From a virus: a stretch of 64,000 nt of DNA. The notes beneath the pieces are model-generated. The model ran no database searches. It was not told where the DNA came from and saw only the letters and a program-made list of their open reading frames with translations. The stretch lies in the IMG/VR virus record IMGVR_UViG_3300045988_114759; one strand, 5' to 3'. A program made the position numbers and the translations under genes. Shown here one piece after another: positions 13,170 to 29,373 of this stretch (within the stretch, counting starts at the first letter, position 1; every line of letters starts with the position of its first letter).

Positions 13170-13172
13170 CAT

Positions 13173-13244: not shown

Positions 13245-13261
13245 CTAAAAAAAGTAAGACA

Positions 13262-13702
13262 ATGAACTACCCAGAGCAACAAATGCTTAAGATCCTTAAT
13301 AGGGATCTGTTAAGTAATCCGATGTATGTTATTAACAATCTTCATATATATGATTGGGAATCTGACTTCCTGGCCATAACAAGATCATTGTACGCTTATG
13401 AAGTAGAGGTTAAGATGTCTAAACAAGATTTCTTTAACGACTTCAAAAAGGATAAAAAACATAAGGTTCTTAAAGACGGCATTATTAAGGTAGGTGGTGT
13501 CATAAGCTATCCTCCAAACTATTTCTACTACGCCTGTCCTCCTAATATGATTGACGTAAGTGAAGTTCCGTCTTATGCCGGGCTGATTTATGTCGATGTT
13601 AGTAAAAATAGGAAGAACGTCGTTAAAGTAGCACCTTTAATTCATAGACAGAAGTTTGATGTAGTGGGTAGGAAACTGGTGGATAAGTTTTACGATCTTT
13701 AA
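13262..13702 (+). CDS. hypothetical protein
   Basis: 146-aa ORF immediately after the tRNA cluster. Confidence 0.45.
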   Translation: MNYPEQQMLKILNRDLLSNPMYVINNLHIYDWESDFLAITRSLYAYEVEVKMSKQDFFNDFKKDKKHKVLKDGIIKVGGVISYPPNYFYYACPPNMIDVSEVPSYAGLIYVDVSKNRKNVVKVAPLIHRQKFDVVGRKLVDKFYDL

Positions 13703-13782
13703 CAAAACCCCTGCTTTTAAGCAGGGGATCAATGATTCTTTTATTCATATATGTATTTTTTAATAATTGATTCTGATACCGG

Positions 13783-14115
13783 TTGCAGAAATGCAGGGGT
13801 TCCATACGTTTGTATCCAAGAATCCCATTTGCTTTAGCGATGGGAGTATGTCAATACAATATGCTCACTTGGAAGAAAAGAGCTATTTCAAACGTGTATG
13901 CTGACCCAGCCAAGGAGAGAGAGAAAGGCGTGCGTGCCGGGGCTGAGGCTGTGAGGAAGTCGGCCTGGGATGCGTTCAGGGCGCAGTGCCCGCACATTGC
14001 TTTCCCCTATGGAAATGAATTTCCGATGTGTGACGATCACGAACAAGATCATCCCATGAGAGACTGCATTCTTCAGTGTGAAAAAGGTAGAATATTTAAA
14101 AACAAATTAAAATGA
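13783..14115 (+). CDS. hypothetical Cys/His-rich protein; the 5' end lies inside a dispersed repeat
   Basis: 110 aa. The first ~25 codons fall within the ~60-bp repeat also present, inverted, at 23.8 kb. The C-terminus is Cys/His-rich (CPHIAF...CDDHEQDHPMRDCILQC). Confidence 0.35.
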   Translation: MQKCRGSIRLYPRIPFALAMGVCQYNMLTWKKRAISNVYADPAKEREKGVRAGAEAVRKSAWDAFRAQCPHIAFPYGNEFPMCDDHEQDHPMRDCILQCEKGRIFKNKLK

Positions 14116-14381
14116 GCACCCCACGTGAATTAAGCAGGATAGCTAATAGGATAGCCGGTAAGATGACTGATGATGGATGGGTCAGCCCCGGTAGGAAGAA
14201 TCTTGTCTCCGATAAGAAGGTTATGGAATTAATAGATTTGATCTTTAATGAAATATGGAGGGAATTAGATGACGGGAAAAGAGTCCATATCAGAAAACAG
14301 ATGATTTTAAAAAAGATTTTTGTCAGTAGGCAAAAAGATAAATACTACATACAATGCATAGAAAAAAGGGACGCCAAATAG
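14112..14381 (+). CDS. hypothetical protein
   Basis: 89 aa with an ATGA overlap to the upstream ORF. Confidence 0.4.
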   Translation: MSTPRELSRIANRIAGKMTDDGWVSPGRKNLVSDKKVMELIDLIFNEIWRELDDGKRVHIRKQMILKKIFVSRQKDKYYIQCIEKRDAK

Positions 14382-14398
14382 ACGCCCCTTTTCTTTTT
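14366..14398. terminator. bidirectional hairpin terminator at a convergent gene junction
   Basis: The aaaaggg...ccctttt stem sits between the + gene ending at 14381 and the - gene ending at 14412. It is followed by a T-run on the + strand and an A-run on the - strand. Confidence 0.5.
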
Positions 14399-14411
14399 CT
14401 GTAAGTAATTG

Positions 14412-15068
14412 TTATTTCATTACTTTCCTTACCAACTTAGAAACAGCTTGCGTGATAGTCCACCTTATGTTAGCACTAACATTGATAGTCTGAGAAGTAC
14501 CGTTTGCATCCAAGTTAATTACCTCCTTGTCTAATTTCAAGAACGGATCACCTGCTGTCTGGGTAATAACCGTATTAGCTGTCTGACCACCAGCGGTCGT
14601 CACCTCAAGAGTATTTACCAGATCGTTTGTATTAGTGTTCGCTGCAATACCGGAGAATACGATACTGAAAGCAAAGCCCTCTGTTGCACCAGGGTCGTTG
14701 GCAATAGCAGCGCCGTTGCTGGTATCCTTGCCTGCCGCCCGATAACTGGCAGGCATTTTCAGCGTCAGAGGATGAGTCTTGTCCGGAGTTGAGGAGAACG
14801 TTAATTTAGTTGAGTTACTTGTACCGTTGATCGTTACAGTACCACCTTCTTTTCCTACGGATACAGTAGAATCTATTTTTACAAACTCAGCTGCCGCAGC
14901 TTGGTTTATGGTAACACTTTTCTTAACTCCCCCAGATTCGGCGCCAAATTCTACTTGTTGCGTGCGTCGTGTACGACCTTCGTATTTTTCACCTGATACG
15001 GTAACCGCCTGATTACCATCACCTGATCCCGGATTGAAGGTTACAAAACCTATTTTCAATTCTGCCAT
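14412..15068 (-). CDS. structural protein with bacterial Ig-like (BIG2-type) domain
   Basis: 218 aa, Thr/Gly/Ser-rich. The C-terminal segment LKLDKEVINLDANGTSQTINVSANIRWTIT resembles BIG2 domains found in capsid-decoration and major tail proteins. Confidence 0.5.
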   Translation of the reverse strand: MAELKIGFVTFNPGSGDGNQAVTVSGEKYEGRTRRTQQVEFGAESGGVKKSVTINQAAAAEFVKIDSTVSVGKEGGTVTINGTSNSTKLTFSSTPDKTHPLTLKMPASYRAAGKDTSNGAAIANDPGATEGFAFSIVFSGIAANTNTNDLVNTLEVTTAGGQTANTVITQTAGDPFLKLDKEVINLDANGTSQTINVSANIRWTITQAVSKLVRKVMK

Positions 15069-15311
15069 AACATAAATAATTTTGTAGTTAATTAATATCT
15101 TGACAAAGATAGATTTATTATACGAAAATCATATTATTCATGTTTATAAATTAAAAGTTATCTTTATCCCAAAATAAGACAATCATGAGAAGAAGATTTT
15201 TTAACAAAATAGGGGGGCGGTCTCCCTACTGATAATTTTATAGTTTTTGATAAATCTGTATCAGATCCTGCTAATATAACAATAAGCGAAGACTTCGATT
15301 TTTTATATAGG

Positions 15312-16298
15312 TTGATTACCAGTGGCTTCTATAGAGTTCTTTGCAAGAGCGCTATGGGAGGAGGAGAGGTTTTTGTATGTAGGTTGAAGGAAGACAACAG
15401 CAATTTGTATCTTGATGGCAGTCCGGCTGTTCTTACCGGAGAAGAAGGTGATGTGATGGTCGTTTTCTTAGAATTTTGGTATAAGTGGTATAAGGTGGAT
15501 GATAATAGATTTCTTTATCATTTTGCTGATCATGATATCGACGGTACTTACATTCATGTCCCGCAATCTCTTGTTGGAGCATATAAAGGATATGTGTCTT
15601 CAAATAGACTATATAGCTGGAGTGATGTTACTCCTACGACGAACGTATCATTATCTGATTTCAGAAGTTACGCAAAAGCACGTGGTACCGGTTTCCAGGT
15701 GATAGATTTTCAACAACATTGTGTGATTGCTATGATGTTGTATGCTAAGTACAAAACACGTAACCTGCAAGGCGTATTAGGACCCGGTGGCGCAACCGGT
15801 GGTGCGGCTACAACAACGGGAAGCAGCAACGCAACCGGTGGTGCGGATACCGAAAACGAAAGTTCAAAGTATGTTTGCGGCTTAGGACTTGAAGGTGTAT
15901 TTGGCGGTATCTGTGAATGGGTTGAAGGTGTAGAAATAAACAACCGAGTTTGGAAAATCACCGACCCGGACGGTTCGACTCGCAATGTGAACGCCGAGAC
16001 TTTCAGCGGTTGGATAATAAATATAGCAGCCGAAAATGGTCCGTTTTTTGATGTGGTGCCGACACAAGTTGGCGGTAGCGATTCCACGCATTATTCAGAT
16101 TACTATAGTCGGACATCAGACAGCTCCCTTGTTTTGGCGCGCTCCGGTTACCGCTCGTGTCCGACTGGCGGCGTGGCGTATACGGATGCGGCTTACGATG
16201 CGTCGGACATGGATTCGAGCTACGGTTCTCGTCTTGCTTTCCACGGAACCATATCCGAATTGGCTCCAAGGCAATTCAAAAGATTACCCGTATTATAA
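15312..16298 (+). CDS. glycine-rich putative virion/tail-fibre-like protein
   Basis: 328 aa with a G/T/A-rich stretch (GPGGATGGAATTTGSSNATGG), then a Ser/Tyr/Asp-rich C-terminus. No enzyme motif. Confidence 0.45.
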   Translation: MITSGFYRVLCKSAMGGGEVFVCRLKEDNSNLYLDGSPAVLTGEEGDVMVVFLEFWYKWYKVDDNRFLYHFADHDIDGTYIHVPQSLVGAYKGYVSSNRLYSWSDVTPTTNVSLSDFRSYAKARGTGFQVIDFQQHCVIAMMLYAKYKTRNLQGVLGPGGATGGAATTTGSSNATGGADTENESSKYVCGLGLEGVFGGICEWVEGVEINNRVWKITDPDGSTRNVNAETFSGWIINIAAENGPFFDVVPTQVGGSDSTHYSDYYSRTSDSSLVLARSGYRSCPTGGVAYTDAAYDASDMDSSYGSRLAFHGTISELAPRQFKRLPVL

Positions 16299-16378
16299 TA
16301 TCATATTTTAATTGTTTTTTAAATTGTATTGTTAATATTATTACGTATATTTGCGATACAATTTAAAAACATTATATC

Positions 16379-16801
16379 ATGAAGATAAACTTTTTAAGCA
16401 GTAAGGTTTATGTAGGTTCTAAGACAAAAGAAGCTAAAATCAGAAAGCTTTCTATTAGCAAAGATCGGATTATGACCATATCGGTAGATAACCTGAAATG
16501 GATGGGTATCGAAGATGCGGTTCTGATTGGTATGGAAGAAGGAGCTGAGTTTAAAGGGGTGTTGGATTCTAATTTGTATATAGCTCCTTCTAAGGTAGAA
16601 GACGAGAGATCGTTTTTATTAAATAAACAAGGTGAGAAATATAGACGTATTTACCTCCGTGATGTACTGTCTTCGCTGGGTTGGGATATCGGTGATAATA
16701 AGTATGCGGTTTATGATATTGTGAAGATTAAGGACGAAGATGGTGTGTTCTGCCTGGTTCCGAGAGAGATTAAGAAAAGCAAGTTTGAAAAAGGAGAATG
16801 A
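16379..16801 (+). CDS. hypothetical protein
   Basis: 140-aa ORF. Confidence 0.45.
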   Translation: MKINFLSSKVYVGSKTKEAKIRKLSISKDRIMTISVDNLKWMGIEDAVLIGMEEGAEFKGVLDSNLYIAPSKVEDERSFLLNKQGEKYRRIYLRDVLSSLGWDIGDNKYAVYDIVKIKDEDGVFCLVPREIKKSKFEKGE

Positions 16802-16802
16802 T

Positions 16803-17360
16803 ATGGTACAAGATATTGATATAAAATCCAAACGAATATTATTGTTTGATTTTGATGGAACGCTTATAGAAACCGCTTCTGGGAATACGTTCGCTACAGA
16901 CTTGACAGATATGAGGATTAAGATGGATGTGGTGAATAAGGCTCTTGACCTCATGTAGGAGAACGGTGTTAAGGTATTTGCTATCGTAAGCAATCAAGGA
17001 GGAGTAGAAGCTGGGTTTGTTTCTGGAGCTGATATTGAAGCTAAGATAGAATACGTACTGAGGTGCGTACATGATCTGGCGGTAAAGAGAGGCATAAGAG
17101 GCGTCTTGTATGAAAAAAGGTTGTGTTATTCAAATGACGAACAAAATCCGATGAGGAAGCCTAACACGGGCATGATTGATGATATTCTTATGAAGTGTAA
17201 AGACACGGTAATGCGCGGTATGAACTTCAGTCAACTTAAGGGATGTTCGTTGATGGTCGGGGACGCCAGTGGTCTGCCAGGTCAGTTCTCTGATTCGGAT
17301 AAGGTATGTGCTTATAATGCTGGTATTGACTATATGGATAATTACTACGTTTTTGGATAA
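16803..17360 (+). pseudogene. HAD-superfamily phosphatase interrupted by a single in-frame TAG at 16956-16958
   Basis: Motif I LFDFDGTL (DxDGT). After the TAG, the same frame continues with motif II IVSNQGG, motif III RKPNTGMI and motif IV MVGDASGL. The order and spacing resemble GmhB/PNK-type 3'-phosphatases. The ORF table splits this frame into 16740-16958 and 17106-17360. Confidence 0.6.
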
Positions 17361-17682
17361 AGATCTTGATTTAGAATATGTATTGTCCAAAGAACATACA
17401 AGTGAAGGAATAGTTATTTTAAATAATGGCTATATATATATCCTTGAAAATCCATATGGTGTTGGTCTTAATATAAAAATCACTTTAAAAGATTTTTATA
17501 AGATTGAAACCGATGATGGAAAAAATGCAACCGTAGATGATGTGCTGAATATAAGGATTGATAAAGATCGGAATTTCAATTCATATAGTGATGTTGTAAA
17601 GATAGAGGTATTAGAAGACGGTAGTATCAAATATATAAGTTTGTATCATGAAAGTAAAGAAAGCAGCGATAGTTTATCATAA
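17269..17682 (+). CDS. hypothetical protein (start uncertain)
   Basis: ORF in another frame overlapping the 3' end of the HAD gene. There is no internal Met after residue 17, and a TTG start near 17353 is possible. Confidence 0.3.
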   Translation: MVCQVSSLIRIRYVLIMLVLTIWIITTFLDKDLDLEYVLSKEHTSEGIVILNNGYIYILENPYGVGLNIKITLKDFYKIETDDGKNATVDDVLNIRIDKDRNFNSYSDVVKIEVLEDGSIKYISLYHESKESSDSLS

Positions 17683-18607
17683 ATCGGATTTAGATGGCGT
17701 TGTATCGGCAGCCATCGCAACCATGTACGAAAACAGTAAAGACAGGGATGTTATTTATATCCCGTATTCGTATGAAGATGATGTTAAGAAAGTTACCAGC
17801 AAGGTGAGTGACTTAGATGTTGTTTACGTTCTTGACGTGTCTTTTGGAGCCGATTCTAAAACGGTTTTCAAGAAGTGGCTTGATGAAGGAAAGAGCCTGA
17901 TGTGGATAGATCATCATAAGGGGATTATCGAAGATAGTAAGACATGGGGGTTCGTAGTTCCAGGGTTGAGGAGAGTCGGTACCGGTGCGTGCGCACTTGC
18001 TGCCGACCTGCTGATGGGGAAGGTGCCGGCGATCGTCCGGTGTCTGTCAGACTACGATGTGTGGAATAAAGAATCCGGTTTAGGCTGGGATACGGTAGTA
18101 GCTGTCCAGTATGCCTTGAGATCAAAAATTCGATTGAATGTGTTAATAGCATTGTCGTACTTGTATGATCACTTTAAAGAAAATATGAAAGACAATGAAA
18201 TTGATCTTATTTTTTATGATCTTGCTAAAGAAGGACGTGCTATAATTAACTACATGGCTGGTAAAAACGAAGATGAGGTAAGTAGGTGTTCGTTCGAAGC
18301 GCACGTCGATGAGGTGAAGGTTGTAGCGATGAATACCGCTGAATCAGGTTCTAAGGTATTTGATTCTCTTACACCGGACTGGTTAGACGGTAGAAAAATT
18401 AAAGCTTTGATGCCATTCTGTATCATGCCAGGTGGAAAAGTTAGGTTCTCTCTTTACAAATGCGTAGAAGACGGCGTAGATTGCTGTGAGGTAAGTAAGA
18501 GATTCGGTGGTGGAGGACATGCCGGTGCTGCTGGATTCGTTATAGACGTATCAAGCGACCAATTTAAGGACTTCCTTGAAAACCACAAACTTACTTCAAT
18601 TCAATAA
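17648..18607 (+). CDS. DHH-DHHA1 phosphoesterase (NrnA-like nanoRNase / pAp phosphatase family)
   Basis: N-terminal YHKSDLDGVVSAA (DHH motif I). MWIDHHKG (DHH motif). C-terminal GGGGHAGAAGF (the GGGH signature of DHHA1). Confidence 0.8.
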   Translation: MKVKKAAIVYHKSDLDGVVSAAIATMYENSKDRDVIYIPYSYEDDVKKVTSKVSDLDVVYVLDVSFGADSKTVFKKWLDEGKSLMWIDHHKGIIEDSKTWGFVVPGLRRVGTGACALAADLLMGKVPAIVRCLSDYDVWNKESGLGWDTVVAVQYALRSKIRLNVLIALSYLYDHFKENMKDNEIDLIFYDLAKEGRAIINYMAGKNEDEVSRCSFEAHVDEVKVVAMNTAESGSKVFDSLTPDWLDGRKIKALMPFCIMPGGKVRFSLYKCVEDGVDCCEVSKRFGGGGHAGAAGFVIDVSSDQFKDFLENHKLTSIQ

Positions 18608-18617
18608 ATTAATAAGG

Positions 18618-18662
18618 TCGTGTTTTAAATAGGATTGGTTTCTATCAATCCTATTTTTTTTT
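18618..18662 (+). terminator. intrinsic terminator after the DHH gene
   Basis: The 9-bp stem aataggatt/aatcctatt is followed by T9. Confidence 0.6.
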
Positions 18663-18679
18663 GTGTTGCGTGGAGAGGC

Positions 18680-19045
18680 GGGTGTGATGATGATAAAATG
18701 AGAAATAGGTTTGTGCGATGGGAGAGAAAGACAGAAATAGGTTTGTGTGATGTGGGAGAAAGACAGAAATAGGTTTGTGTGATGTGGGAGAAAGACAGAA
18801 ATGGGTTTGTGTGATGGGAGAGAAAGACAGAAATGGGTTTGTGTGATGGGAGAGAGGGGCAGAAATAGGTTTGTGTGATGGGAGAGAGAAAGACAGAAAT
18901 AGGTTTGTGTGATGGGAGAGAGGGGGTGTGATGATGATAAAATGAGAAATAGGTTTGTGCGATGGGAGAAAGACAGAAATAGGTTTGTGTGATGGGGGAG
19001 AGGGGGGGGGGAAATAGGTTTGTGTGATGTGGGAGAGGGGGTACC
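18680..19045. repeat. tandem direct repeat array (~10 imperfect copies of a ~32-35-bp unit GAAATAGGTTTGTGTGATGGGAGAGAAAGACA); iteron-like
   Basis: Counted directly in the sequence. Copies vary by gtg/gcg and by gggagag length. The array lies in a ~900-bp non-coding region followed by AT-rich palindromes. Confidence 0.85.
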
Positions 19046-19519
19046 TATCACGAACCTCCCGCCCCCGAAACGCGTTTTCTACCCCACACCCCCCTTCGCT
19101 TGAAAACCGGAAACGCGTTTTTACCTCAAACCTACAAACTCTCTGATTATCAATCATTTATTTAAATTATTGATAATCAATGTGTTATTATAACATATTG
19201 ATTATAAGCCACTTAAATAAGCATATATCCCACATATTAATGTACGCGTGTAATACCGCTCCTGTATGTTTTTTATAACTTGCTGATAATCAGATAATAT
19301 AATCGAAATTAATACAAATTAACAAAAAAAAGATAGCATATATATTTGTAATATTGATAAATGTCGTATATTTGCGTCGTGATCGAGAGAGATCGCAAGT
19401 TAACATGATGAGCCTATATAGTGTACCCGTTGGGCTAACTATATATGTATCTGTTAATCGCCTGCGTTGTGGGCTATTGAATTGAATATCACTTGTTTAA
19501 CAAATAAATACATAATGTT

Positions 19520-20047
19520 ATGATTACGAAAAAAAACATTAACAAGCTACAGAACGCTGTTATCAAAGAAAATGCTGCAAATTTGGTTGGTGCCGTAAAG
19601 TTATACAACGCTTTATTTGCAAATGGAGCTGATCTCAAGGCTATTTGCAAGGCCTTGGAAATACCAGCCGAATATGCTGTAAAGGTTGCATCTCTCGCTA
19701 AAGATAAAAAACGTCTGGTAGCCGTGTGTAGCCAAATGTTACCAAAGGTTGGCGATACCTTCGTAAAATTTACCTTGTATTCTAAAATATACAAAGATAG
19801 TAAGGTTAACAAGGAAAAAGGTATCGAGAATAAAGAGGTGAAAAATATCGCCTACGGTGAAGAGTATAAGCCTTTTGGGTTTGCTTCTCCCGAACCTTTG
19901 GAAGGTAAGAACAGCGCAAAGTGGCTCACTCGTGAAACCGACGAGTATAGAGCTACTTATGTAGCGACACGAATCGCTTCTTACTCAATCCGTACCATCG
20001 CAAAGTGTGTAAGTGAATACCTCGCACATGAAAGCAACCAGCAGTAA
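19520..20047 (+). CDS. hypothetical protein
   Basis: 175-aa ORF after the repeat/AT-rich region. Confidence 0.45.
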   Translation: MITKKNINKLQNAVIKENAANLVGAVKLYNALFANGADLKAICKALEIPAEYAVKVASLAKDKKRLVAVCSQMLPKVGDTFVKFTLYSKIYKDSKVNKEKGIENKEVKNIAYGEEYKPFGFASPEPLEGKNSAKWLTRETDEYRATYVATRIASYSIRTIAKCVSEYLAHESNQQ

Positions 20048-20544
20048 CAAGGCACGGAGAGCGCCGTTAAGCTCTCCAAAGGTTTGACGCGTACCGTTAA
20101 ACGTGTCTGTACGCCGTTGTCAGTGGGTGCACGTCCCGCGTATGCTTTAGACTGAAGCTGACAAAATAGAGAGTTATTTTACATATTGGAGATAGATATA
20201 CCATTGCCCTTGCCGTTGGCAATTAAAGGGCCGGTATTACTGCATGGACTATCCGAATAGGTATGGTTTATGTTAGGTATGTGAGTATAGTTTAGAAAAT
20301 ATACCGTTGTACGAGGTTTGTCTCCGTTCGGGAACGTGTCTTACTTGCCTACACGTAAAATAGGACAAGGCTGTAGATTAAATTACAGGGTATGAGCATG
20401 TAACCTATCATGTAGGAGCATCTTATATCAAAACGCAAGGACACAATCGCCTTTATTTGTGGCTAAATTGTGTAGCAGACGGAAAATATAATAACAACAT
20501 AGTACGGGCCTGTACGCAAGAACTACGTACTAATTACGGGCTGT

Positions 20545-20608
20545 TGGTTGTAGCATAAAATCTCTATAGGATAGGAATGCGTGTCCGGTTCGATTCCGGA
20601 GCAACCTC
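20545..20608 (+). other. tRNA-3'-half-like element (T-arm tccgg-TTCGATT-ccgga plus acceptor-like stem tggttgt/gcaacct), too short to be a full tRNA
   Basis: Only 32 nt separate the acceptor 5' strand and the T-stem, where about 41 are needed. The element lies immediately upstream of the small ORF at 20632. Confidence 0.4.
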
Positions 20609-20631
20609 TAAATTATAAACAATATAATAAC

Positions 20632-20885: not shown

Positions 20886-21204
20886 CCTACTCTTTCTATT
20901 TACGGGTAGGATATTCTGAGAGTGAACACGACGACAAACAAGGTAGGAATGCGTATATTGGTTCAAATCGAAACAAAAATAAGGCTGTTTGGATATAATT
21001 CCGGTATTTTGTCTATATCATGTCGTTAAAATTGGTCTAAAACGAAACTTTAGGCGGTTTTCTGACCCAAAATAGGGCGTCAGATGCCGCCTTTTTCGTC
21101 TCTATGGATTGAAAATTAGGCTTATTGTATTTTTCTTAAAAATGAGGTATGCTTGATTATCAATTAGTTAGATTTTATAATCCCCGTATTTTCGGGCATA
21201 CTTA

Positions 21205-21390
21205 TTGTATTTTTTTTATTTTATGTGGTGGTTTTTATTAGTGGCTGACTTGTATTTTCTGTCGGTTGGTATTCGTTCTATGTTAGAGTACGGGCCGGAT
21301 CAGTATAATATCGTAATGGTCTTTTGCTTTTCTTTATTGGCTTTGATTATAGGCTTAAATATCTATCTTGATAGGAGGAGCAGACGGTAG
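21205..21390 (+). CDS. small membrane protein (2 predicted TM helices)
   Basis: 61 aa with two hydrophobic stretches (FMWWFLLVADLYFLSVGI and VMVFCFSLLALIIGLNIYL). Confidence 0.3.
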   Translation: MYFFYFMWWFLLVADLYFLSVGIRSMLEYGPDQYNIVMVFCFSLLALIIGLNIYLDRRSRR

Positions 21391-21576
21391 GGCGTGTGCT
21401 GAAGACTCTCTATTCTCTCTATGGAATGATATTATCTCCAAACACCCCACACTTCATGCCAGAGTATAAGCTTGTAGCGCTCTTCGTATGCCGGTAGTGA
21501 GGCGGTAGGGCGCAGGTTCTATGCGGAAAGATAGAGGATTAGACGGGGTGGGATTGGGGGAGAGGGAGGGCACTCT

Positions 21577-21850
21577 CCTCCAACAAAATTCAATAGATCA
21601 GAGCTTTAAAACAGCCAACAAAACTCAATAGATCAGAGCTTTAAAACAGCATTTTGTGGTTTCTTCCAACAAAATTCAATAGATCAGAGCTTTAAAACAG
21701 CCAACAAAATTCAATAGATCAACGTTTTAAAACAGCATTTTGTAGTTTCTTCCAACAAAATTCAACAGATCAACGTTTTAAAACAGCATAATGTAGGATT
21801 TTCCAACAAAATTAAGACTTACAGCGTTTTTAAAACAGTATTCTGTAGGT
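21577..21850. repeat. second tandem repeat array (~7 copies of ~35-bp unit CCAACAAAATTCAATAGATCAGAGCTTTAAAACAG, alternating with CATTTTGTGGTTTCTT spacers)
   Basis: Counted directly in the sequence. Preceded by the G-rich tract gggtgggattgggggagagggaggg at 21545-21570. Confidence 0.85.
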
Positions 21851-21920
21851 AAGAGTTAAGGACTGCATTATGTGAGTATTTTTTTTAATCGGAATGTATA
21901 ACAATTAAAACATAAACAAC

Positions 21921-22181
21921 ATGAACGTATATGACTTTGCGCCTGACTTAGATTTGAGTAAGGAGGGAGAAGGTTCTATTTTTGGAGTGAAAGGAATAGA
22001 AGGTAGTGATGGTATAGTATATGCTAAGGTAGTTAGCTGTGCAGAAGTTAAGGATTACAGTTGTGATAGGTGTATTTTTTATGATTGTTATAAGGATAAA
22101 TGTTTGTTATCGCGTAGTAATAGTTGTATAGATGGAGACTGGTGTTGTAGGTACGAACAGGCTGCCATAGAGGGGGAGTAG
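21921..22181 (+). CDS. small cysteine-rich protein (10 Cys in 86 aa)
   Basis: C...C..C....C....C......C....CC pattern. Possibly metal-binding. Confidence 0.4.
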   Translation: MNVYDFAPDLDLSKEGEGSIFGVKGIEGSDGIVYAKVVSCAEVKDYSCDRCIFYDCYKDKCLLSRSNSCIDGDWCCRYEQAAIEGE

Positions 22182-22213
22182 GCGGCGCCTTGGGCTAAGG
22201 CCTGCGGTTGTAG

Positions 22214-22537
22214 GTGGAACGTAGGTCGGAGCAGAGCCAGGACAGTTTATTGTGGAACGTAAAAAGAAAAAAGATGGAAAGGACAATACATTATATTTGG
22301 ATAAATTGGGTATCTTCTACAGGTTCGGAAAGTAGTAGGCTAATAAGCAACAGGTCTATGCCGGTATCAGATGCCAAAGAGATGATATTAAGAACGAGTG
22401 CTAAAGAATTGCTTAAATACAGACCGAGTTGGTTAAAGGACTGTGTTCGTATTAGTGTAAGTGCACAGGATATTACGACCGGAGAGATCCTGTATAGAAG
22501 AACTATAAACATAAAGAAGAAGGAGATAGCGATATGA
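22214..22537 (+). CDS. hypothetical protein
   Basis: 107-aa ORF. Confidence 0.4.
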   Translation: MERRSEQSQDSLLWNVKRKKMERTIHYIWINWVSSTGSESSRLISNRSMPVSDAKEMILRTSAKELLKYRPSWLKDCVRISVSAQDITTGEILYRRTINIKKKEIAI

Positions 22538-22656
22538 AAAAGGCATTTAAGATATTTTCTATTATGTTTGTCATAGAAATAGTGCTGATAGCTATTTTAG
22601 ATGCTATGGCGTAAGTGAGAAAAATTTCTTCATTAATTTTCTTATGCTTTAAACAG

Positions 22657-22684
22657 AGTGCTCCCGTCTGCGAAGATCGGAGCA
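22657..22684 (+). other. hairpin with conserved loop GTCTGCGAAGAT (copy 1)
   Basis: The gtgctcc...ggagcac stem shares its loop sequence with the terminator hairpin at 27145. Confidence 0.4.
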
Positions 22685-22693
22685 CTTGCTTTA

Positions 22694-22738
22694 TGGGATT
22701 CATGGTGCGGTAGGTCGGTTCGATTCCGGCGATCTCAC
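22694..22738 (+). other. tRNA-3'-half-like element (gtcgg-TTCGATT-ccggc T-arm, tgggatt/gatctca acceptor-like stem)
   Basis: Only 13 nt separate the 5' acceptor-like strand and the T-stem. The element sits immediately upstream of the ORF at 22768. Confidence 0.4.
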
Positions 22739-22767
22739 ACAACATTAAAAACAAAGGAGGAAAGAAA

Positions 22768-23109
22768 ATGAAAGATGGCATTAAATTGCATCCAGAACAC
22801 GGATTGAATCCGTCTATAGAAGTCTGCATGATATGTGGCGAAGAGATGGGGATTGCTTTATTAGGGAATAACATCAAGGGGCAGGCGCCGCATCATATAT
22901 GCACGGGCGAAGTATGTGACAATTGCAAAAAGATAATAGATGATGGAGGTTGTTTTATTATCGAAGTCGAGGATGGATCAGATCAAAAGAATCCGTATCG
23001 TACAGGAAGATATTGTGCGATAAAGAAAGAGGCGGCAAAGAAAATGTTTGGACAGGAGCATAATATTGTGTACATGGAAAAGTCTGCGTACAATCTAATA
23101 ATACCATAA
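22768..23109 (+). CDS. zinc-binding protein (CxxC...HH.C...C..C)
   Basis: 113 aa with the motif CMICGEE...HHICTGEVCDNCKK. Preceded by an AAAGGAGG ribosome-binding site. Confidence 0.45.
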   Translation: MKDGIKLHPEHGLNPSIEVCMICGEEMGIALLGNNIKGQAPHHICTGEVCDNCKKIIDDGGCFIIEVEDGSDQKNPYRTGRYCAIKKEAAKKMFGQEHNIVYMEKSAYNLIIP

Positions 23110-23210
23110 AAATGAAGAGAGATATGTTTACAAAAGAAGAGCGATTATTCATATGGAAAAAGGTATATGCTGTATCATAGAGGGGATGACGCGGCGTGCC
23201 GGTATGTATG

Positions 23211-23245
23211 TGTCGGTTCTGGTTCGATTCTGGGCATCTCACAAA
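23211..23245 (+). other. degenerate third copy of the TTCGATTC..GG/ATCTCACAAACA motif
   Basis: Shares TTCGATTC and ATCTCACA(A/C)AACA with the 22694 copy. Sits upstream of the ORF at 23264. Confidence 0.35.
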
Positions 23246-23263
23246 CAATAAAACAAAAGAGTT

Positions 23264-23494
23264 ATGAGAATATACAAGAATGATATTATAAAGGCGTCAG
23301 CGATAAACACCGGCGCAGACAGAGGTGTGTTACTGTGTTCAATAACAGATTCAGGATTCACGTCTATAGCGGGCGTAATATCGGCTGTTAAGGATAAGTT
23401 ACCAGGCAAAGATCATAAGAAGATGATTTTTGAAATACGGAATGATGGAAGAAACGAATATGGTAGATATAATAATTGTGGAGGAAAAATATGA
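23264..23494 (+). CDS. hypothetical protein
   Basis: 76-aa ORF. Confidence 0.35.
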   Translation: MRIYKNDIIKASAINTGADRGVLLCSITDSGFTSIAGVISAVKDKLPGKDHKKMIFEIRNDGRNEYGRYNNCGGKI

Positions 23495-23766
23495 AATACA
23501 GAGGTCTGTTGCTCCCTATGATATTAGCTGCAATGTGCGGAGATGATGCCTTTGTGCTAAATACTAAAAGGGGAAAAGGAATGCAATCTACATATAGAAG
23601 AGAAAAGATTGTCAGAACAGAAAAAGAATTTGATATTAATGGTACTAAAGTAATGGCATACTCAAGAAAGGATGCCATTAAGAGATTAAAACATAAGAAG
23701 TGGAAAACGTATTTTTATGTTAATGTTAGTTTTTTCATTTTTATTGAAAGGAGCGCCGGCCCGTGA
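23476..23766 (+). CDS. hypothetical protein
   Basis: 96-aa ORF overlapping the previous stop. Confidence 0.35.
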   Translation: MWRKNMKYRGLLLPMILAAMCGDDAFVLNTKRGKGMQSTYRREKIVRTEKEFDINGTKVMAYSRKDAIKRLKHKKWKTYFYVNVSFFIFIERSAGP

Positions 23767-24003
23767 AGGTATGCGCTCTTTGTATTTGTATAATGCTTGA
23801 CATACTCCCATCGCTAAAGCAAACGGGATTCTTGGATACAAACGTACGGAACCCCCGGTTTTACAATCGTTGGAATCACCCGCACTTTCCAACTCGGAAA
23901 TGCCCTTCCGAGGTCGCAAGACAGGGCAAATATAATGTTTAATTATCATCTGACACATAAATGGGATCAGTATTACCATTAAATAACATAAAACAATAAT
24001 AAT

Positions 24004-24258
24004 ATGACAGATAATAACATAGATGTGAATATCGTACCTGTAAGGAATGGCGCGAAACGTGTTGTGGTATCATATTACCATTATTCACGCAAGGGCAAAA
24101 ATCATATGAGTTCCCAAACGGATTACGTTTGGGAAACAAAGAATGAAGAAATGTTTAAATACTTTGAGGCCAGGAGGACAAAAGTATTTTATAGTCAGAT
24201 TCGTGCCATGTGTAGATTCTATGGCAAGAAAAATGTACGTAAATACAAAAAGCTATGA
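24004..24258 (+). CDS. hypothetical protein
   Basis: 84-aa ORF. Confidence 0.35.
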   Translation: MTDNNIDVNIVPVRNGAKRVVVSYYHYSRKGKNHMSSQTDYVWETKNEEMFKYFEARRTKVFYSQIRAMCRFYGKKNVRKYKKL

Positions 24259-25064
24259 TATTAAAAACGACAACCAATGAGTTTTGTTTCATTAACGTAA
24301 GTTTCTATGAAACAATAGCAGATCCTCGCTATTTCTTTGAACAGGATTATGAAGAGATGCCGGAATATGAGGAAGAATCGGATTTTGATTTTGATTCTTA
24401 TTGCAATAAGTTTATTCCTTTTGTACAGGAATGGGCGAATAAGGTGGGCGAACGCCTTTATGAATATGGTGTGAATAACATAAAGGTAATATCGGTCGGA
24501 CATCCAAATGAATACAATTATGGTACCGATTGGATAAACGTAGAGGTAGAGTTTTGTGATGAATGGAGGCAAAAGATGTTATCTAACATTGGTAAGATTG
24601 TTAATGATGATAAATGCGAGAAGTATGCGGAGGCTAATTATCGGTCGGTATCAGGATGCATCTTTTTAGGACCTGAAGATTTAAAGGAATTTGAAAAGAA
24701 AATAATAGAAAGAAAGTCAGATTCGGGATATGATGCAACAATATTATTAAATATGTATCTAACTTTGGCTTTTGTAAAAGAATTTGGATTTAAAGCCGGA
24801 GAAGCGTGGAGTGAAATAACAGAATATGCTTACGGATGTTTATCGTATTCCGATTTTGCAACAACAGAGATGCTTATACCGGAAGGTTCGGAGCATTTAT
24901 TCAAAGACATTTACACGGCAAAGGCCGACGAATTATATCATCATGTCCTGGATAAATTCGGATGGGCGTGGCGTGATCCGAAATATAAATCAGAAACAGA
25001 ATTATGCTCGATGTTAAAATGGGCAAAAGAAAAAGGCTTGACCATTGAAGAGTTAAGTATTTAA
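24255..25064 (+). CDS. hypothetical protein (269 aa)
   Basis: ATGA overlap with the upstream ORF. No motif. Confidence 0.45.
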   Translation: MILKTTTNEFCFINVSFYETIADPRYFFEQDYEEMPEYEEESDFDFDSYCNKFIPFVQEWANKVGERLYEYGVNNIKVISVGHPNEYNYGTDWINVEVEFCDEWRQKMLSNIGKIVNDDKCEKYAEANYRSVSGCIFLGPEDLKEFEKKIIERKSDSGYDATILLNMYLTLAFVKEFGFKAGEAWSEITEYAYGCLSYSDFATTEMLIPEGSEHLFKDIYTAKADELYHHVLDKFGWAWRDPKYKSETELCSMLKWAKEKGLTIEELSI

Positions 25065-25091
25065 TTGTTAAACATAAGGCAGTAGTGGTGC

Positions 25092-25376
25092 GTGAGTATA
25101 GGTGCTGCCGTTAAAATATTTTATAAGATGAAAAAAGAAGAGATTCAAACTATTTTATACACAATCAAAGAAGGAGACAGTATTAAAATCAAAGTACAAG
25201 ACAAAAGTGAAGAGATAAGATTGCGGGATCATGTAAGAAGAACGCAGAAATACGGATACAGGTTTTGTTTGTCTCATTTGCATGATGGAATTTTCTATTT
25301 GGAGAAGTTGGAAGAGGGAGATAAAGATAAATACTATAGAGTAATAAACAGAGGAAATGGAAAGACCGGAGTATAA
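25092..25376 (+). CDS. hypothetical protein
   Basis: 94-aa ORF. Confidence 0.35.
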   Translation: MSIGAAVKIFYKMKKEEIQTILYTIKEGDSIKIKVQDKSEEIRLRDHVRRTQKYGYRFCLSHLHDGIFYLEKLEEGDKDKYYRVINRGNGKTGV

Positions 25377-25600
25377 TAAGCTACGCAAAATGGCTAAGAC
25401 TACCCCAGGTCTGATAGTGGACGAGGCGCAAAACATGATGCGTGTATCGCTATACGATAATGGGGAACTTAAGAAGGTGGCAGTAGTAATGAAATGCGAT
25501 TCTTTTTTACAGTCAAAAAGTAACATAGAAAAGATAATGTTATTATCATCTTCCATAGAAGATAGAAAAAACAAAGAAAAAAATAAAACAAAATCAGAAA

Positions 25601-25984
25601 ATGAACAGAATAACAAAAATAAGAGAAGAAATAGGAGGAAAACAGGTTGATTTGACCTTTTACGGGCGCTTTTGCAGCCTTATCGAAGATGATAGAAAGA
25701 TAATACTAAGGGCGATAAAAAACGGTCGTAAGAAGGGCGTAATTGGAGCCATTCAGCCTGGGAGACATGATAGAATTTGGACCACATGGTCTATTGCTTT
25801 TGATGATTTGAAGGTAGGGGATACGGTAGAGTTCAGTACATCTGGAAAATACAATCCCGGATTTCATGCTACGGAAAAGTATGTAGGGTGTGTAGAATGG
25901 ATAAAAGGATCGGAATGTGCGATAAAAACCGGCAATGGAATGGCGGTAGTATTAATTAAACACATAGAAAGGGTAGTAAAATGA
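25601..25984 (+). CDS. hypothetical protein
   Basis: 127-aa ORF. Confidence 0.4.
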   Translation: MNRITKIREEIGGKQVDLTFYGRFCSLIEDDRKIILRAIKNGRKKGVIGAIQPGRHDRIWTTWSIAFDDLKVGDTVEFSTSGKYNPGFHATEKYVGCVEWIKGSECAIKTGNGMAVVLIKHIERVVK

Positions 25985-26265
25985 TGGGGTTGAGAGAATT
26001 TGTAGAACTTTTTGACAAGAATGAAGTAAAGAATTTGTTTAATGCATTGTCTTCATGTATAGAATACGTAAGGATAGATTTGCATGTATTTAATATAGGT
26101 GCTCATGTTGCGTGTCTGTACAGTAATGATCCTGAATTGCTTTCACAGGCAGAAGGTTGTAATGTGAATATGATAATAGAGGTACCCTACTTGTTTGAAG
26201 CATTTATGGAATACGCTTCACCGGAACTGAAAGCTTATTATGATGAACTAACAAAAGAAGTATGA
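25981..26265 (+). CDS. hypothetical protein
   Basis: 94 aa with an ATGA overlap. Confidence 0.4.
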   Translation: MMGLREFVELFDKNEVKNLFNALSSCIEYVRIDLHVFNIGAHVACLYSNDPELLSQAEGCNVNMIIEVPYLFEAFMEYASPELKAYYDELTKEV

Positions 26266-26744
26266 AAGAGGAAGTAGAACGGATAAAGAAGTTGGTTGGC
26301 ATAGATCATAACAGATGGGAGCAACCTTGTACATGTGATAAATGCAAGAATATGTGTAAGGTTCCTTGTATTGGTACGCCAAAAGACATAGAAGCTATCA
26401 TAGATGCAGGATATGCTGACAGGCTAAAAGAGACAATGTGGATGGTGGGGTATCTTGCAGTGAAAGAAAAACCAATAACGATGATCCAGCCAACAAAAAA
26501 AGACGGGTGGTGCGCATTCCGCCAGCCGGACGGTCTCTGCGAGCTGCATGACCGCGGACTAAAGCCGACTGAAGGAGTTCTGGCTTCTTGCAAGGTGGTT
26601 GAAGAAGACGATATTCCAACATACGAGACATCCGTACTTAGAGCGGTAGCCCACGAGTGGGTTAAGATAGAGAACTTCGCAACTATAATGAGGGTCGTTT
26701 TTAAATACTTGCATTACAATGAACGTAGAGAACAAGATAAATAA
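26262..26744 (+). CDS. Cys-rich protein (CTCDKCKNMCKVPC N-terminal cluster)
   Basis: 160 aa. The N-terminal cluster of 5 Cys plus later Cys/His suggests metal or Fe-S binding. Confidence 0.4.
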   Translation: MKEEVERIKKLVGIDHNRWEQPCTCDKCKNMCKVPCIGTPKDIEAIIDAGYADRLKETMWMVGYLAVKEKPITMIQPTKKDGWCAFRQPDGLCELHDRGLKPTEGVLASCKVVEEDDIPTYETSVLRAVAHEWVKIENFATIMRVVFKYLHYNERREQDK

Positions 26745-27123
26745 GATAGCTAAGATCTTAAAAGAAAAAGGATTTATTGTGTATAAGAAAGGCGGAAAGG
26801 AACCAGGTGTGTTTTACGCCAAAGAAGGTGACAGCCGGATAGGATTCGTTTATCCCAACAACGGATATATATACGACAGGATAAAGATGTGGTCTTTTTC
26901 AAGGATATATAAACCACATAAGAAAACCGGATCTTCGTGTTTAATGTGTGTCAGCGACGAATTTACTATAGAAAATGCGATTAAGAACATAGGGGATAGA
27001 CTGTGGGTAAATTATATAAAAGATGGTAACGGAAAACGACCAGAAGAATATAAAAATATAAGAGAATTTGTTGGTAGCTTCACTAAATTCTACAACTCTG
27101 TAGAATTAGTTGAGGTTAAGTAG
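26719..27123 (+). CDS. hypothetical protein
   Basis: 134 aa. Confidence 0.4.
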   Translation: MNVENKINKIAKILKEKGFIVYKKGGKEPGVFYAKEGDSRIGFVYPNNGYIYDRIKMWSFSRIYKPHKKTGSSCLMCVSDEFTIENAIKNIGDRLWVNYIKDGNGKRPEEYKNIREFVGSFTKFYNSVELVEVK

Positions 27124-27144
27124 TTTTCCATGTAAGTTAGTTAC

Positions 27145-27181
27145 CGGCACTGGTCTGCGAAGATAGGTGCCGTTTTTTTTA
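27145..27181 (+). terminator. intrinsic terminator; hairpin loop GTCTGCGAAGAT, then T8
   Basis: The cggcac...gtgccg stem is followed by TTTTTTTT. Downstream comes an AAAGGAGG ribosome-binding site and the ATG of the next gene. Confidence 0.65.
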
Positions 27182-27201
27182 TTCAAGAAAGGAGGACAAA
27201 G

Positions 27202-27453
27202 ATGGAGAAAAGAGACAAGAAGATACCTTATGAGGTAGTCATACAGGAAAGAAAAAGGGTGGATTTATACGGTAACATAGTGTATTATATCCATTGGTTT
27301 GATAAATATGGGTACAATATCACAAAAGAATGGAAATTTTGGAGCAAGGGCCCGAAAAAGAAATACGATAGAGTTAATCGTTATCTAACGGATAGTTGGC
27401 TGAAGGAATACTGTGGGAATAACAATTTAAAGATAAGTAGAATAAAGGAATGA
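27202..27453 (+). CDS. hypothetical protein
   Basis: 83 aa with a strong AAGGAGG ribosome-binding site. Confidence 0.45.
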   Translation: MEKRDKKIPYEVVIQERKRVDLYGNIVYYIHWFDKYGYNITKEWKFWSKGPKKKYDRVNRYLTDSWLKEYCGNNNLKISRIKE

Positions 27454-27782
27454 AAACGATAAAAGTAGACAAAGTGATATTATATTACATGGATCGGGTA
27501 GACCCTGACGGGAACTTATACCGGTTCTATGTGTATAAAGGAATGGCATCTGAAATAGAATACTTTTGCACTGAAGAGGCAGGTAATATGACCATACCAA
27601 TCGGAGAAGGAGAGTATGTCAAGATCGTACCAAAAGAAATAGAGAAAATACCGGTAAGGGGATATAGGAAGCTTGCTGGAATATGGAATTGTGAAACATG
27701 TAACGGGAAGGGATGGCATAGGCTTTTTAATTATTTCAAATACAAGCCAGACATATGTTATATTAAAAAACATAGGGCGTGA
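27450..27782 (+). CDS. hypothetical protein
   Basis: 110 aa with an ATGA overlap. Confidence 0.4.
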   Translation: MKTIKVDKVILYYMDRVDPDGNLYRFYVYKGMASEIEYFCTEEAGNMTIPIGEGEYVKIVPKEIEKIPVRGYRKLAGIWNCETCNGKGWHRLFNYFKYKPDICYIKKHRA

Positions 27783-27962
27783 TAAAAATGGAAACACAAG
27801 ATATGAAGTATCATTATTTAATGCCACTATGAATGTGACAAGGTATTTTAATCTGTGGAGAATGAAGCCAGGGATGCATGCTATGATAACAAACGAGTAC
27901 GGAGTCTTGGATATTATAAAAGAAAAATTCGATAACATAAATATAGTGGAATATAGTGGAAT

Positions 27963-28160
27963 ATGGATATAAATAAAAAGAGTAGAAAAGATTATGAGAA
28001 GTTTCTTAACTCAATATCTCCAGATAGAGACGATGAGGCATGGATCATTGGAGGAAAGAACAGGTATTGCGGTAGAGAGAATTATGGCACTATGATCAAA
28101 AGGTATGATCCTATTGGTTTTAATGTAGGATACAGGGAGTGGGTAGAACAGCCAGAGTAA
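27963..28160 (+). CDS. hypothetical protein
   Basis: 65 aa. Confidence 0.3.
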   Translation: MDINKKSRKDYEKFLNSISPDRDDEAWIIGGKNRYCGRENYGTMIKRYDPIGFNVGYREWVEQPE

Positions 28161-28405
28161 GGCGGCGCCCGTCCTGCCATGAGGCCAGCCTAGCTGTTCG
28201 TGGCCAGGGCCATACATTAATCAGATAGTGAACGGCGAAAACAATACATAAAATGGGAAACGAATTAAAACTTAACAGCGCAGAAGAAGCAGAAGTAATT
28301 TTAAGAAATGGTGGCTGATTATAAAGGTCGCATATATGAATATTACGAGTTCAAGAGAGAGGTCATTGATAAGATAAGATAATTATATACCTAAAATAAT
28401 AGTTT

Positions 28406-28720
28406 ATGACATTCAAAGAATTTATGAAAGAAGTGGGCTATAACCTACTGACTACCTTTTGGGAAGATTTTAGTATAGCCGACAAGTATGGTATAGTAGG
28501 TGTCAAAGATACCTACAGACGTGCGTTTAGCGAATGGAAAGACGATTATAAGTTCTTCACGGAATTAACGCTCGTATTGAATCATAAAATCTGGCAGCAT
28601 TATGAAAGCAATCGTGAACTGGCTGCATTGTATGACCGGTTGTGGCGAGAAGCTGACGAGTATGCCATGAGCAACTTTAAGGGAGAAGAACTTGATTATT
28701 ATTACAGAATAACTGATTAG
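28406..28720 (+). CDS. hypothetical protein
   Basis: 104 aa. Confidence 0.4.
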   Translation: MTFKEFMKEVGYNLLTTFWEDFSIADKYGIVGVKDTYRRAFSEWKDDYKFFTELTLVLNHKIWQHYESNRELAALYDRLWREADEYAMSNFKGEELDYYYRITD

Positions 28721-28911
28721 CTATGTTATACCCGTTTTCATTGACGCTTGACTTATATATACAAGCCGAATCGTTTGAAGAAGCCAAGAAATTAGCAGAA
28801 GCATACGTACAAGATGCTTCGTTAGATACAACTGACTATCCGGAAATAGTACAGGATGTGTTGGAAGTGGCAGAGTATGGAATAATTGATGTAGAATAAT
28901 AAATTAATATT

Positions 28912-29187
28912 ATGACAGCAGCAGAAAAATTGCGTATGGAAATAGCGCAAGAAGCACCATTTAGTAAGGACGAATTTATTAGTAAAATCTCTCGTCTAAT
29001 TAAGGCGTATGGATATGCAAGTTTTATTTGCGACAAGCATATTCGAGAAACCGATGTATCGCCTAACGGTAACACGATTCGTATGGTACATGAACAGATA
29101 GCAATTGATTTTGCTCGTTATGAGGGTTTCTTAGTATCATACAAACATAACAGTTATGGTGTTAGATATATAGTATTCACTCTTTGA
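28912..29187 (+). CDS. hypothetical protein
   Basis: 91 aa. The 3' end abuts the third copy of the dispersed repeat. Confidence 0.4.
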   Translation: MTAAEKLRMEIAQEAPFSKDEFISKISRLIKAYGYASFICDKHIRETDVSPNGNTIRMVHEQIAIDFARYEGFLVSYKHNSYGVRYIVFTL

Positions 29188-29373
29188 CATACTCCCATAG
29201 CTAAAGCAAACGGGATTAAAAGAATGTAGCAGGGAAGAGGCATTTGACATCATTCAAGGGTGGGCTAAAGAGTTTGCAGAGGAATATGGGAATTGTGATT
29301 TTGATGGATCATACTATGATGAAATAGATGCATTTATCGAAGAAAAATTAAGAACTATTTAAAATATAAAGAC

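Follow-up and report, generated by a model that had tools for sequence, protein, structure and literature searches.

The DNA analysed here, hereafter the window, is a 64,000-nt stretch of the IMG/VR virus record IMGVR_UViG_3300045988_114759, and all coordinates below are positions in it. By its sequence the window belongs to an epsilon crAss-like phage, and its sole close GenBank relative is csAssE-Sib/crAssE-Sib (OR575929.1), a 151-kb genome from the human gut with ~92% identity. The published description of that phage (PMC11054128) contains no mention of the element treated here. A Bacteroidota host is probable, since canonical TTTG-N18-20-TAnnTTTG promoters precede genes of the window. Between 18.6 and 21.9 kb lies a conserved hub of ~3.3 kb, flanked by replication and nucleotide-metabolism genes, and its last element is a tandem repeat array at 21580–21848. 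From the array it is 60–85 nt to the first open reading frame (ORF) of a long co-directional block consisting of ~40 small genes followed by primase, helicase and other replication genes. Our analysis suggests that the array is a selected site, and we tentatively read it as an upstream control region of this early-type gene block. The features around it are as follows.

21391–21544, plus strand: conserved non-coding block between a small membrane-peptide ORF and the G-rich tract, holding the hub-specific motif TCTCTATGGAAT at 21416–21427
21545–21570, plus strand: G-rich, largely homopurine tract GGGGTGGGATTGGGGGAGAGGGAGGG, prone to form G-quadruplexes (G4) and mirror repeats, its length differing among relatives
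21571–21579, plus strand: junction of CAC and a pyrimidine run, CACTCTCCT, leading to the first Box B
21580–21614, plus strand: unit 1, truncated, with Box B CCAACAAAATT, variable segment CAATAGATCAGAGC and the first half of Box A, TTTAAAACAG
21615–21665, plus strand: unit 2, full 51 nt, made up of 35 nt (21615–21649), CATTTTGTGG (second half of Box A) and a TTTCTT linker
21666–21700, plus strand: unit 3, truncated 35-nt form
21701–21751, plus strand: unit 4, full 51 nt, made up of 35 nt (21701–21735) ending in TTTAAAACAG, then CATTTTGTAG and TTTCTT
21752–21802, plus strand: unit 5, full 51 nt, made up of 35 nt (21752–21786) ending in TTTAAAACAG, then CATAATGTAG and GATTTT
21803–21848, plus strand: unit 6, the gene-proximal "type B" unit, CCAACAAAATTAAGACTTACAGCGTTTTTAAAACAG TATTCTGTAG, which is also the terminal unit in most relatives
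21849–21920, plus strand: unique A/T-rich leader from the array to the first downstream ORF, conserved in relatives of the same subclade
21921–22181, plus strand: first downstream ORF, 86 aa, Cys-rich, without a family and with weak codon periodicity

The array was recognized by reading of the sequence, by Tandem Repeats Finder (TRF) and by an independent repeat search, whose unit register agrees with that of TRF. TRF assigned scores of 355 at a period of 86 nt (35 + 51) and 189 at a period of 51 nt. Six units of the same orientation start at 21580, 21615, 21666, 21701, 21752 and 21803, giving spacings of 35, 51, 35, 51 and 51 nt. The 20-nt Box A pattern was matched six times against an expectation of 0.20 and the 11-nt Box B pattern nine times against 2.62, and no shuffle reached either count. 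The array is confirmed and is far above chance. An initial annotation, made by a model from the sequence alone, had placed the array here with a G-rich tract ahead of it, and both are borne out. It had also noted a separate and unrelated array in the same hub, which TRF likewise recovers (32-nt units at 18701–19040); we refer to that one as array 1 and to the present one as array 2. Its count of about seven copies has to be lowered to six, and of the alternating 1-nt and 16-nt spacers that it described the 16-nt interval stands, whereas neighbouring units otherwise abut with 0 nt between them.

Even the 16 nt are not a true spacer, as their first 10 nt, CATTTTGTRG, are the conserved half of a box. 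This type of half-box recurs past the last unit as TATTCTGTAG at 21839–21848. The ancestral unit is ~51 nt long and comprises Box B (CCAACAAAATT), 12–14 variable nt, Box A (TTTAAAACAG plus YATnnTGTAG) and a linker of ~6 nt. Unit 1 stops after the first half of Box A and has no linker, and the core of unit 6 (21803–21838) is a decayed 36-nt copy with 75% identity. The 35-nt steps of the window are a private slippage product, the linker and the latter half of Box A having dropped out.

A search of related genomes recovered the array in every relative examined (~130 loci), always between the G-rich tract and the first gene of the long small-gene block, and the possibility raised at the outset that no related phage would conserve it therefore falls away. 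A pattern scan of IMG/VR yielded 87 loci, with up to nine pattern matches per array. Across these loci, the GenBank relative and the window, intervals of 50–52 nt made up 167 of ~185 (24 at 50, 106 at 51 and 37 at 52 nt), and the two 35-nt steps in the pattern-scan set both came from the window. In a second, independent set of 43 other distinct complete arrays, 68 of 70 intervals measured 50–52 nt and none measured 35 nt. The array of crAssE-Sib has three units, all with a 51-nt period, and its boxes occur at no other locus in the 151-kb genome, which makes the array single-copy; no boxes were found in the other intergenic gaps of the window either. Copy number between conserved flanks ranged from 1 to 10 with a median of 4 in 47 loci and from 1 to 9 in 43 further loci, bearing in mind that short-read assemblies may collapse repeats. 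Every complete locus of both sets (47 + 43) retained at least one unit and the array was never absent. Private sub-unit amplifications of 23, 29, 33 and 39 nt were found in other genomes. The homopurine run of the G-rich tract also varied (median 20 nt, range 10–44 nt in 47 loci), with a canonical G4 motif in 28 of the 47. The non-coding block at 21391–21544 had a column entropy of 0.17–0.30 over 38 loci with no codon periodicity, and it folded no better than shuffled sequences.

Conservation within the unit is uneven. Over 60 distinct units the box cores were near-invariant and the segment between the boxes existed in unrelated versions (CAAYAGATCAG, AAGACTTACAG, AAGGATTGCAG and AAGACTATCAG). 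In these units and in single-anchor controls, entropy was ~0–0.2 bit in the CAAAAT and TTTAAAACAG cores compared with 1–1.8 bit in the 12–14 nt between them. Because the regular expression used to define units fixed some box positions, the measurement was repeated with TAAAACAG as the sole anchor; the unanchored CAAAAT was still at ~0–0.2 bit and the centre at 1–1.8 bit. Since two boxes are near-invariant while the 12–14 nt between them vary freely, the array is best regarded as a selected site and not as a neutral minisatellite. The initial annotation had seen in it a protein-binding platform, and in this it was on the right track: the array behaves as a selected cis element, being single-copy, universal in relatives, built of boxes around a free spacer and matched by syntenic counterparts. 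It had also considered a simple slippage expansion; the array is indeed strongly polymorphic by slippage, but not devoid of conservation in relatives.

The syntenic counterparts were found in distant lineages. An exhaustive search returned remote homologues of ORF 19520 of the hub at 27–42% identity, one of which led to the long IMG/VR contigs L176 and L177, and L180, L181 and L184 came from scanning metagenomes with the small basic protein of the hub. All five keep the hub layout and carry a syntenic tandem array with a period of 40–42 nt, with the hub protein ~37% identical and the flanking proteins 37–45% identical. The distant units differ from those of the window, and what is shared is the entry, the core and the decay toward the downstream gene. 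The entry consists of a G-rich tract ending in (G)CAC and then a pyrimidine run (GGCAC-YTYTTCC-N-CMACAAA between genera), and the core is TTYCC-N0-3-CA(C/T/A)AAAAT, in shorthand TTYCC-CAMAAAAT. In addition, TTTATGGAAT recurs upstream of the distant-genus array at a distance similar to that in the window. The first ORFs after the array in the window and in L177 are not homologous, and the array thus tracks the hub and its location and is not tied to any one gene. Related-locus searches with alignment A2, P0124, P0126 and P0127 returned no loci, and the Logan contigs for P0124 and P0158 end short of the array.

The distribution of host-type promoters sets the two sides of the hub apart. Host-type −7 elements (TAnnTTTG) lie 12–150 nt before gene starts throughout 0.7–19.4 kb (at 745, 2719, 8357, 12255, 13805, 16346, 17636 and 19367), and most operons of the replication and nucleotide-metabolism block (745–19374) are preceded by host-type promoters. 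No TAnnTTTG was found in the intergenic gaps from the array to ~31.7 kb (the 20900–31700 side, ~10 kb of small genes). There would therefore be two transcription regimes separated by the hub, and this distribution, together with the position of the array, points to control of the downstream early-type block. Our favoured reading, which we hold with some reserve, is that the array is a reiterated cis-acting DNA module forming the upstream control region of that block. The two boxes of each unit, at a fixed distance around a free spacer, would constitute a composite site for a sequence-specific factor other than the host sigma-A holoenzyme, candidates being an injected virion RNA polymerase (RNAP), an early-transcription cofactor or a regulator. 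With units of ~51 bp (40–42 bp in the distant lineages), near five or four helical turns, bound factors would be aligned along approximately the same side of the helix, immediately ahead of the first early gene. Slippage or unequal recombination, by adding or removing units, would then adjust the strength of the site with function retained, since a single unit suffices. We infer from the data DNA-level binding, a factor belonging to the early transcription machinery and modulation of output by unit number. The fixed bipartite spacing, the fixed co-directional orientation and the constant distance from last unit to ORF would fit a reiterated promoter or regulator-binding module.

The published background is compatible with such a factor. 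The epsilon group is reported to encode a virion RNAP like that of phi14:2 (PMC11054128); the phi14:2 enzyme transcribes the early genes (bioRxiv 10.1101/2020.03.07.982082), and the virion RNAP of P23-45 works from a conserved AT-rich promoter motif, which clusters at the first-entering end of the genome (PMC10770324). In a more specific version, the divergent crAss-type virion RNAP would use every unit as a promoter, or depend on it as a promoter-proximal binding module; this seems to us rather doubtful. If it were true, the array would be a naturally reiterated, copy-number-tunable early promoter for a polymerase with no known promoter consensus. The polymerase would recognize the TTYCC-CAMAAAAT core and the A-rich box specific to each lineage, and these elements would co-evolve with it.

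Action on DNA is argued from the periods near four and five helical turns and from phased A/T tracts. The A/T-tract signal, concentrated at the ~10.2-bp harmonic, was significant for distant-lineage units (reached by 113 and 40 of 5000 shuffles) and for the 50-nt variant (74 of 5000). Several observations weigh against control of the early block by a DNA-bound factor. For the common 51-nt units helical phasing was non-significant (651–860 of 5000 shuffles), and the sub-unit amplifications of 23, 29, 33, 35 and 39 nt ignore phasing altogether. The orientation and the level (DNA or RNA) of action are what we infer from sequence patterns, and the copy numbers are approximate, coming from short-read assemblies able to collapse repeats. 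Searches for a binder identified none, the hub ORFs 19520 and 20632 having neither a family nor a fold match. The motif occupies one locus in 151 kb, and known phage-RNAP promoters, such as those of N4 and P23-45, occur at several sites. No common motif was found upstream of the phi14:2 early transcripts (bioRxiv 10.1101/2020.03.07.982082). Finally, a phased array at a single locus fits an origin of replication equally well.

An origin is the main rival, though less likely in our estimate. The units would be iterons for a phage initiator or a recruited host factor, and the G-rich tract and A/T-rich flanks would aid opening or R-loop priming, after which the phage DnaB-like helicase, primase and host Pol III would be loaded. 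The single locus per genome speaks for it, as do the direct repeats, whose conserved boxes recur at close to whole numbers of helical turns, and the setting in a conserved non-coding hub with replication and nucleotide-metabolism genes on its flanks. The G-rich homopurine tract, lying on the non-template strand for rightward transcription, could stabilize an R-loop, a mechanism familiar from the ColE1, T4 and mitochondrial DNA origins. The epsilon group, moreover, has a minimal replication set with no DNA polymerase of its own (PMC7886860). Against an origin, GC skew rises monotonically through the hub (18–23 kb), with turning points at ~0.7 kb and ~55 kb, although the skew here goes with the direction of the genes, which confounds the test. 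An initiator of the Rep_3, RepA, DnaA or lambda-O type was not detectable, the replication proteins showing only primase, DnaB_C and zinc-finger domains and the model of ORF 19520 no fold match. DnaA boxes numbered zero at ≤1 mismatch and were at background density at two mismatches, and the candidate boxes TCCTCCACA and TTTCCCACA in the arrays were rejected on the latter ground. The units of 45–51 bp are much longer than classical iterons of 17–22 bp, and the adjoining A/T-rich stretch is ~50 nt only. An inverted solo unit within ORF 19520 is not conserved beyond coding constraint. The negatives on skew, initiator and DnaA boxes are not decisive. The tests supported none of the specific roles put forward in the initial annotation: the origin went without a skew inflection at the hub, a recognizable initiator or DnaA boxes, and a partition site without ParA or ParB, neither of which appears among the 206 annotated features of crAssE-Sib or in Pfam scans. 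The third, packaging, belongs to a broader proposal to which we give little weight, namely that the array is a genome-end, packaging or DNA-entry signal (a terminal-repeat boundary, a pac-like terminase site or an injection pause site). A single-locus non-coding array directly ahead of the presumed first-expressed genes does recall the leading ends of T7, N4 and T5. The same holds for P23-45 (PMC10770324); crAss-like phages are reported to use either short direct terminal repeats or pac-type headful packaging (PMC8042965), and many contigs end within the array. However, these ends fall at every unit phase, and assemblies do not show physical ends; contigs that carry the array at each end can be accounted for by circular assemblies opened within a repeat, and terS/terL are ~20 kb from the start of the relative's record and tens of kb from the hub.

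An RNA-level element, with the array in a long leader or non-coding RNA (ncRNA) and its repeated A-rich and CU-rich motifs serving an RNA-binding factor or the ribosome as sponge or docking site, is improbable. It gains from phi14:2, in which long intergenic regions by the early genes are transcribed very strongly as long non-coding RNAs (bioRxiv 10.1101/2020.03.07.982082), and from the rest of the hub, which resembles a set of conserved ncRNA modules; RNA of the array would be unstructured and A-rich, and CCUCC/CUUCC in the units is complementary to the upstream GGAGG-rich tract. Yet there was no relevant Rfam hit at E up to 10 and no consistent covariation by inspection, and neither the array (fold z-scores −1.55 and −1.41) nor the upstream block folded better than shuffled sequences on either strand. 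Conservation of the CCUCC motif fails both among units and among lineages, and periods near helical-repeat multiples with phased A/T tracts have no RNA rationale. That the array is a neutral minisatellite, a slippage-prone repeat without a function of its own, is very unlikely. Its polymorphism is extreme (1–10 copies, two-unit alternations, private amplifications of 23, 29, 33, 35 and 39 nt) and one unit appears to be enough, but the boxes are conserved where the spacer between them has diverged into unrelated variants, the array was never lost in ~90 complete loci, and a syntenic array with a shared core persists in lineages whose flanking proteins are 37–45% identical. Least credible are tandem Bacteroidota sigma-A promoters directed either to the right, toward the early genes, or to the left, toward the hub; such promoters were tested with the consensus TTTG-N19-21-TAnnTTTG. 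A perfect minus-strand TAnnTTTG (TAATTTTG) was present in 65 of 155 units, the last decayed unit of L177 has a perfect plus-strand TAGTTTTG 43 nt before the ORF, and every unit of array 1 carries TAGGTTTG. On the minus strand, however, the critical first T is variable (G in 77 of the 155 units) and the non-critical "nn" invariant, and L176 and L177 lack the match. On the plus strand none of 157 junction 8-mers was perfect and 103 had two mismatches, the gene-proximal one being TAGGTAAG. There is no TTTG −33 element at 19–21 nt on either strand. A host-type promoter was rejected on both strands for this genus.

Three further candidates were discarded. The minus-strand unit resembles type II repeats of clustered regularly interspaced short palindromic repeats (CRISPR), a likeness unsupported by a genome scan: the 35-nt unit pattern, searched against 185,579 species genomes, hit no CRISPR array and gave only a chance match within a coding sequence and one of the phage's own contigs, in an exact-pattern search that diverged repeats could escape. 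A CRISPR-repeat or RNA anti-CRISPR mimic was rejected, the gaps being 0 or 16 nt and those 16 nt conserved. The degenerate solo inverted unit at 19547–19590, statistically striking in the window and considered as an autoregulatory operator of ORF 19520, varies freely at synonymous sites in relatives. A dispersed promoter or operator motif was rejected as well, since neither the rest of the 151 kb nor the other intergenic gaps contain the boxes.

In the hub as a whole the non-coding parts are more conserved (entropy 0.1–0.25) than ORF 19520 (0.3–0.55). ORFs 19520, 20632 and 21205 show coding periodicity, and family searches with these three and ORF 21921 gave no match. The AlphaFold2 model of ORF 19520 had a mean predicted local distance difference test (pLDDT) value of 69.8 and a best Foldseek E of 0.31, and ORF 20632 gave a three-helix model with a best E of 3.5; neither protein could be identified from these matches. 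The ORF beginning at ATG 21223 (21223–21390, plus strand) encodes 55 aa and is conserved, genuinely coding and very hydrophobic, with two membrane helices predicted by eye; it lies just upstream of the conserved leader of the array. The ORF-free stretch at 20048–20631 (plus strand, ~580 nt) has an entropy of 0.09–0.31, more conserved than the neighbouring gene, and its segments ATCAAAACGCAAGGACAC and GTGTAGCAGACGG are recognizable in distant lineages (L177, 7880–7950). It is probably a large structured ncRNA ending in a T-arm-like hairpin, with no match in Rfam.

Small repeated motifs also mark the hub. On the plus strand TCTCTATGGAAT occurs only at 21099 and 21416, and GGTYWAAAWCGAAAC and TCTCTATGGAWT, each present twice, are confined to the hub (sites at 20960–20974, 21034–21048, 21099–21110 and 21416–21427, plus strand). 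L177 has four copies of GGTYWAAAWCGAAAC, each followed by a hairpin and a T-run, and three copies of TCTCTATGGAWT. These two motifs look like small repeated transcription or processing modules. Orphan hairpins resembling a tRNA T-arm (5-bp stem, TTCGATT loop) lie on the plus strand at 20584–20600, 22714–22731 and ~23220–23233, and also in L177 (~8170–8190) and L173 (~1338–1356), each 44–52 nt upstream of an ORF start; ARAGORN and Rfam called none of them. The hairpin before the small basic ORF is conserved between lineages, its stem changing in a compensatory way (TCCGG/CCGGA, TAGGG/CCCTA and AACGG/CCGTT). Because crAssE-Sib encodes a Ro60-related protein, a CCA-adding/polyA polymerase, a polynucleotide kinase-phosphatase and a DHH (NrnA-like) enzyme, these hairpins could be Y-RNA-like or tRNA-like. 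Within the early block, a 34-nt sequence, TTGACATACTCCCATCGCTAAAGCAAACGGGATT, occurs at 23797–23830 and 29184–29217 (plus strand) with 97% identity, 5.4 kb apart.

At the other end of the hub, array 1 (18701–19040, plus strand) has eight copies, with a perfect Bacteroidota −7 element (TAGGTTTG) in each 32-nt unit and ~24 nt back to the TTTG of the previous unit, slightly above the usual 19–21 nt. These units may be host-type promoters in tandem, directed into the hub. An analogue of array 1 resembling that of a third lineage, with a 27-nt period, was seen in L239. In an A/T-rich stretch between array 1 and ORF 19520 lies a perfect 11-bp inverted repeat, TGATTATCAAT-N14-ATTGATAATCA, at 19144–19179, which TRF finds to be part of a 27-nt × 2.2 repeat conserved in relatives. 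Compared with array 2, it bears more resemblance to a classical operator or origin feature.

Short-read assemblies break at both arrays. Numerous Logan contigs measure ~2.75 kb, the length of the inter-array segment (P0008, P0010 and P0020 among the examples), and many IMG/VR contigs (L041/L072, L061/L074 and L052/L067 among the examples) start or end inside an array, some with units at both ends. Array units at both ends of a contig can mimic terminal repeats and so give false evidence of genome completeness. A 3.9-kb contig of this phage with a two-unit array, L090 (NZ_DXLG01000138.1), was binned in the Veillonella metagenome-assembled genome HRGM_Genome_0346. A Veillonella host is doubtful because the promoters are of Bacteroidota type, and the binning is probably an error.

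Compared with known systems, the array is an undescribed example of the familiar intergenic repeat arrays of phages. Like the iteron arrays and centromeres of lambda ori, P1 oriR and F sopC (43-bp repeats), it consists of same-orientation direct repeats at one non-coding locus, with conserved boxes, near-whole-turn spacing and variable copy number. Unlike them, it has no recognizable initiator or Par genes nearby, its units are two-box modules of 45–51 bp and not 17–22 bp, and it lacks a skew change, DnaA boxes and a substantial A/T-rich unwinding region. With the virion-RNAP promoters of P23-45 (AT-rich, pre-early) and N4 (early) it shares a conserved A/T-rich motif that occurs only where the earliest gene block begins. 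The phage concerned packages an RNAP, and this block is free of host-type promoters. The P23-45 and N4 promoters are dispersed before several genes, whereas here the motif is tandem at one site, and N4 promoters are hairpins, whereas the array has no conserved hairpin. The architecture of phi14:2 is the same, a non-coding region of >1.5 kb with a few small ORFs followed by small early genes and then replication genes, but that region has no comparable array, only a 15-nt × 2.5 repeat, and no sequence similarity. Upstream variable-number tandem repeats of the contingency type likewise change copy number by slippage among very close relatives directly upstream of a gene block and could tune expression. 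The present units differ in being long, with strongly conserved boxes, and here a link between copy number and expression is only conjectural.

For the study of these phages, the variable order and number of units offer a natural strain-typing marker. The 45-nt two-box unit is a short DNA probe with which an early-gene factor, a candidate virion-RNAP promoter or an origin may be sought. The array as a whole gives a handle on early transcription or replication of the crAss type in a phage that is abundant in the human gut.

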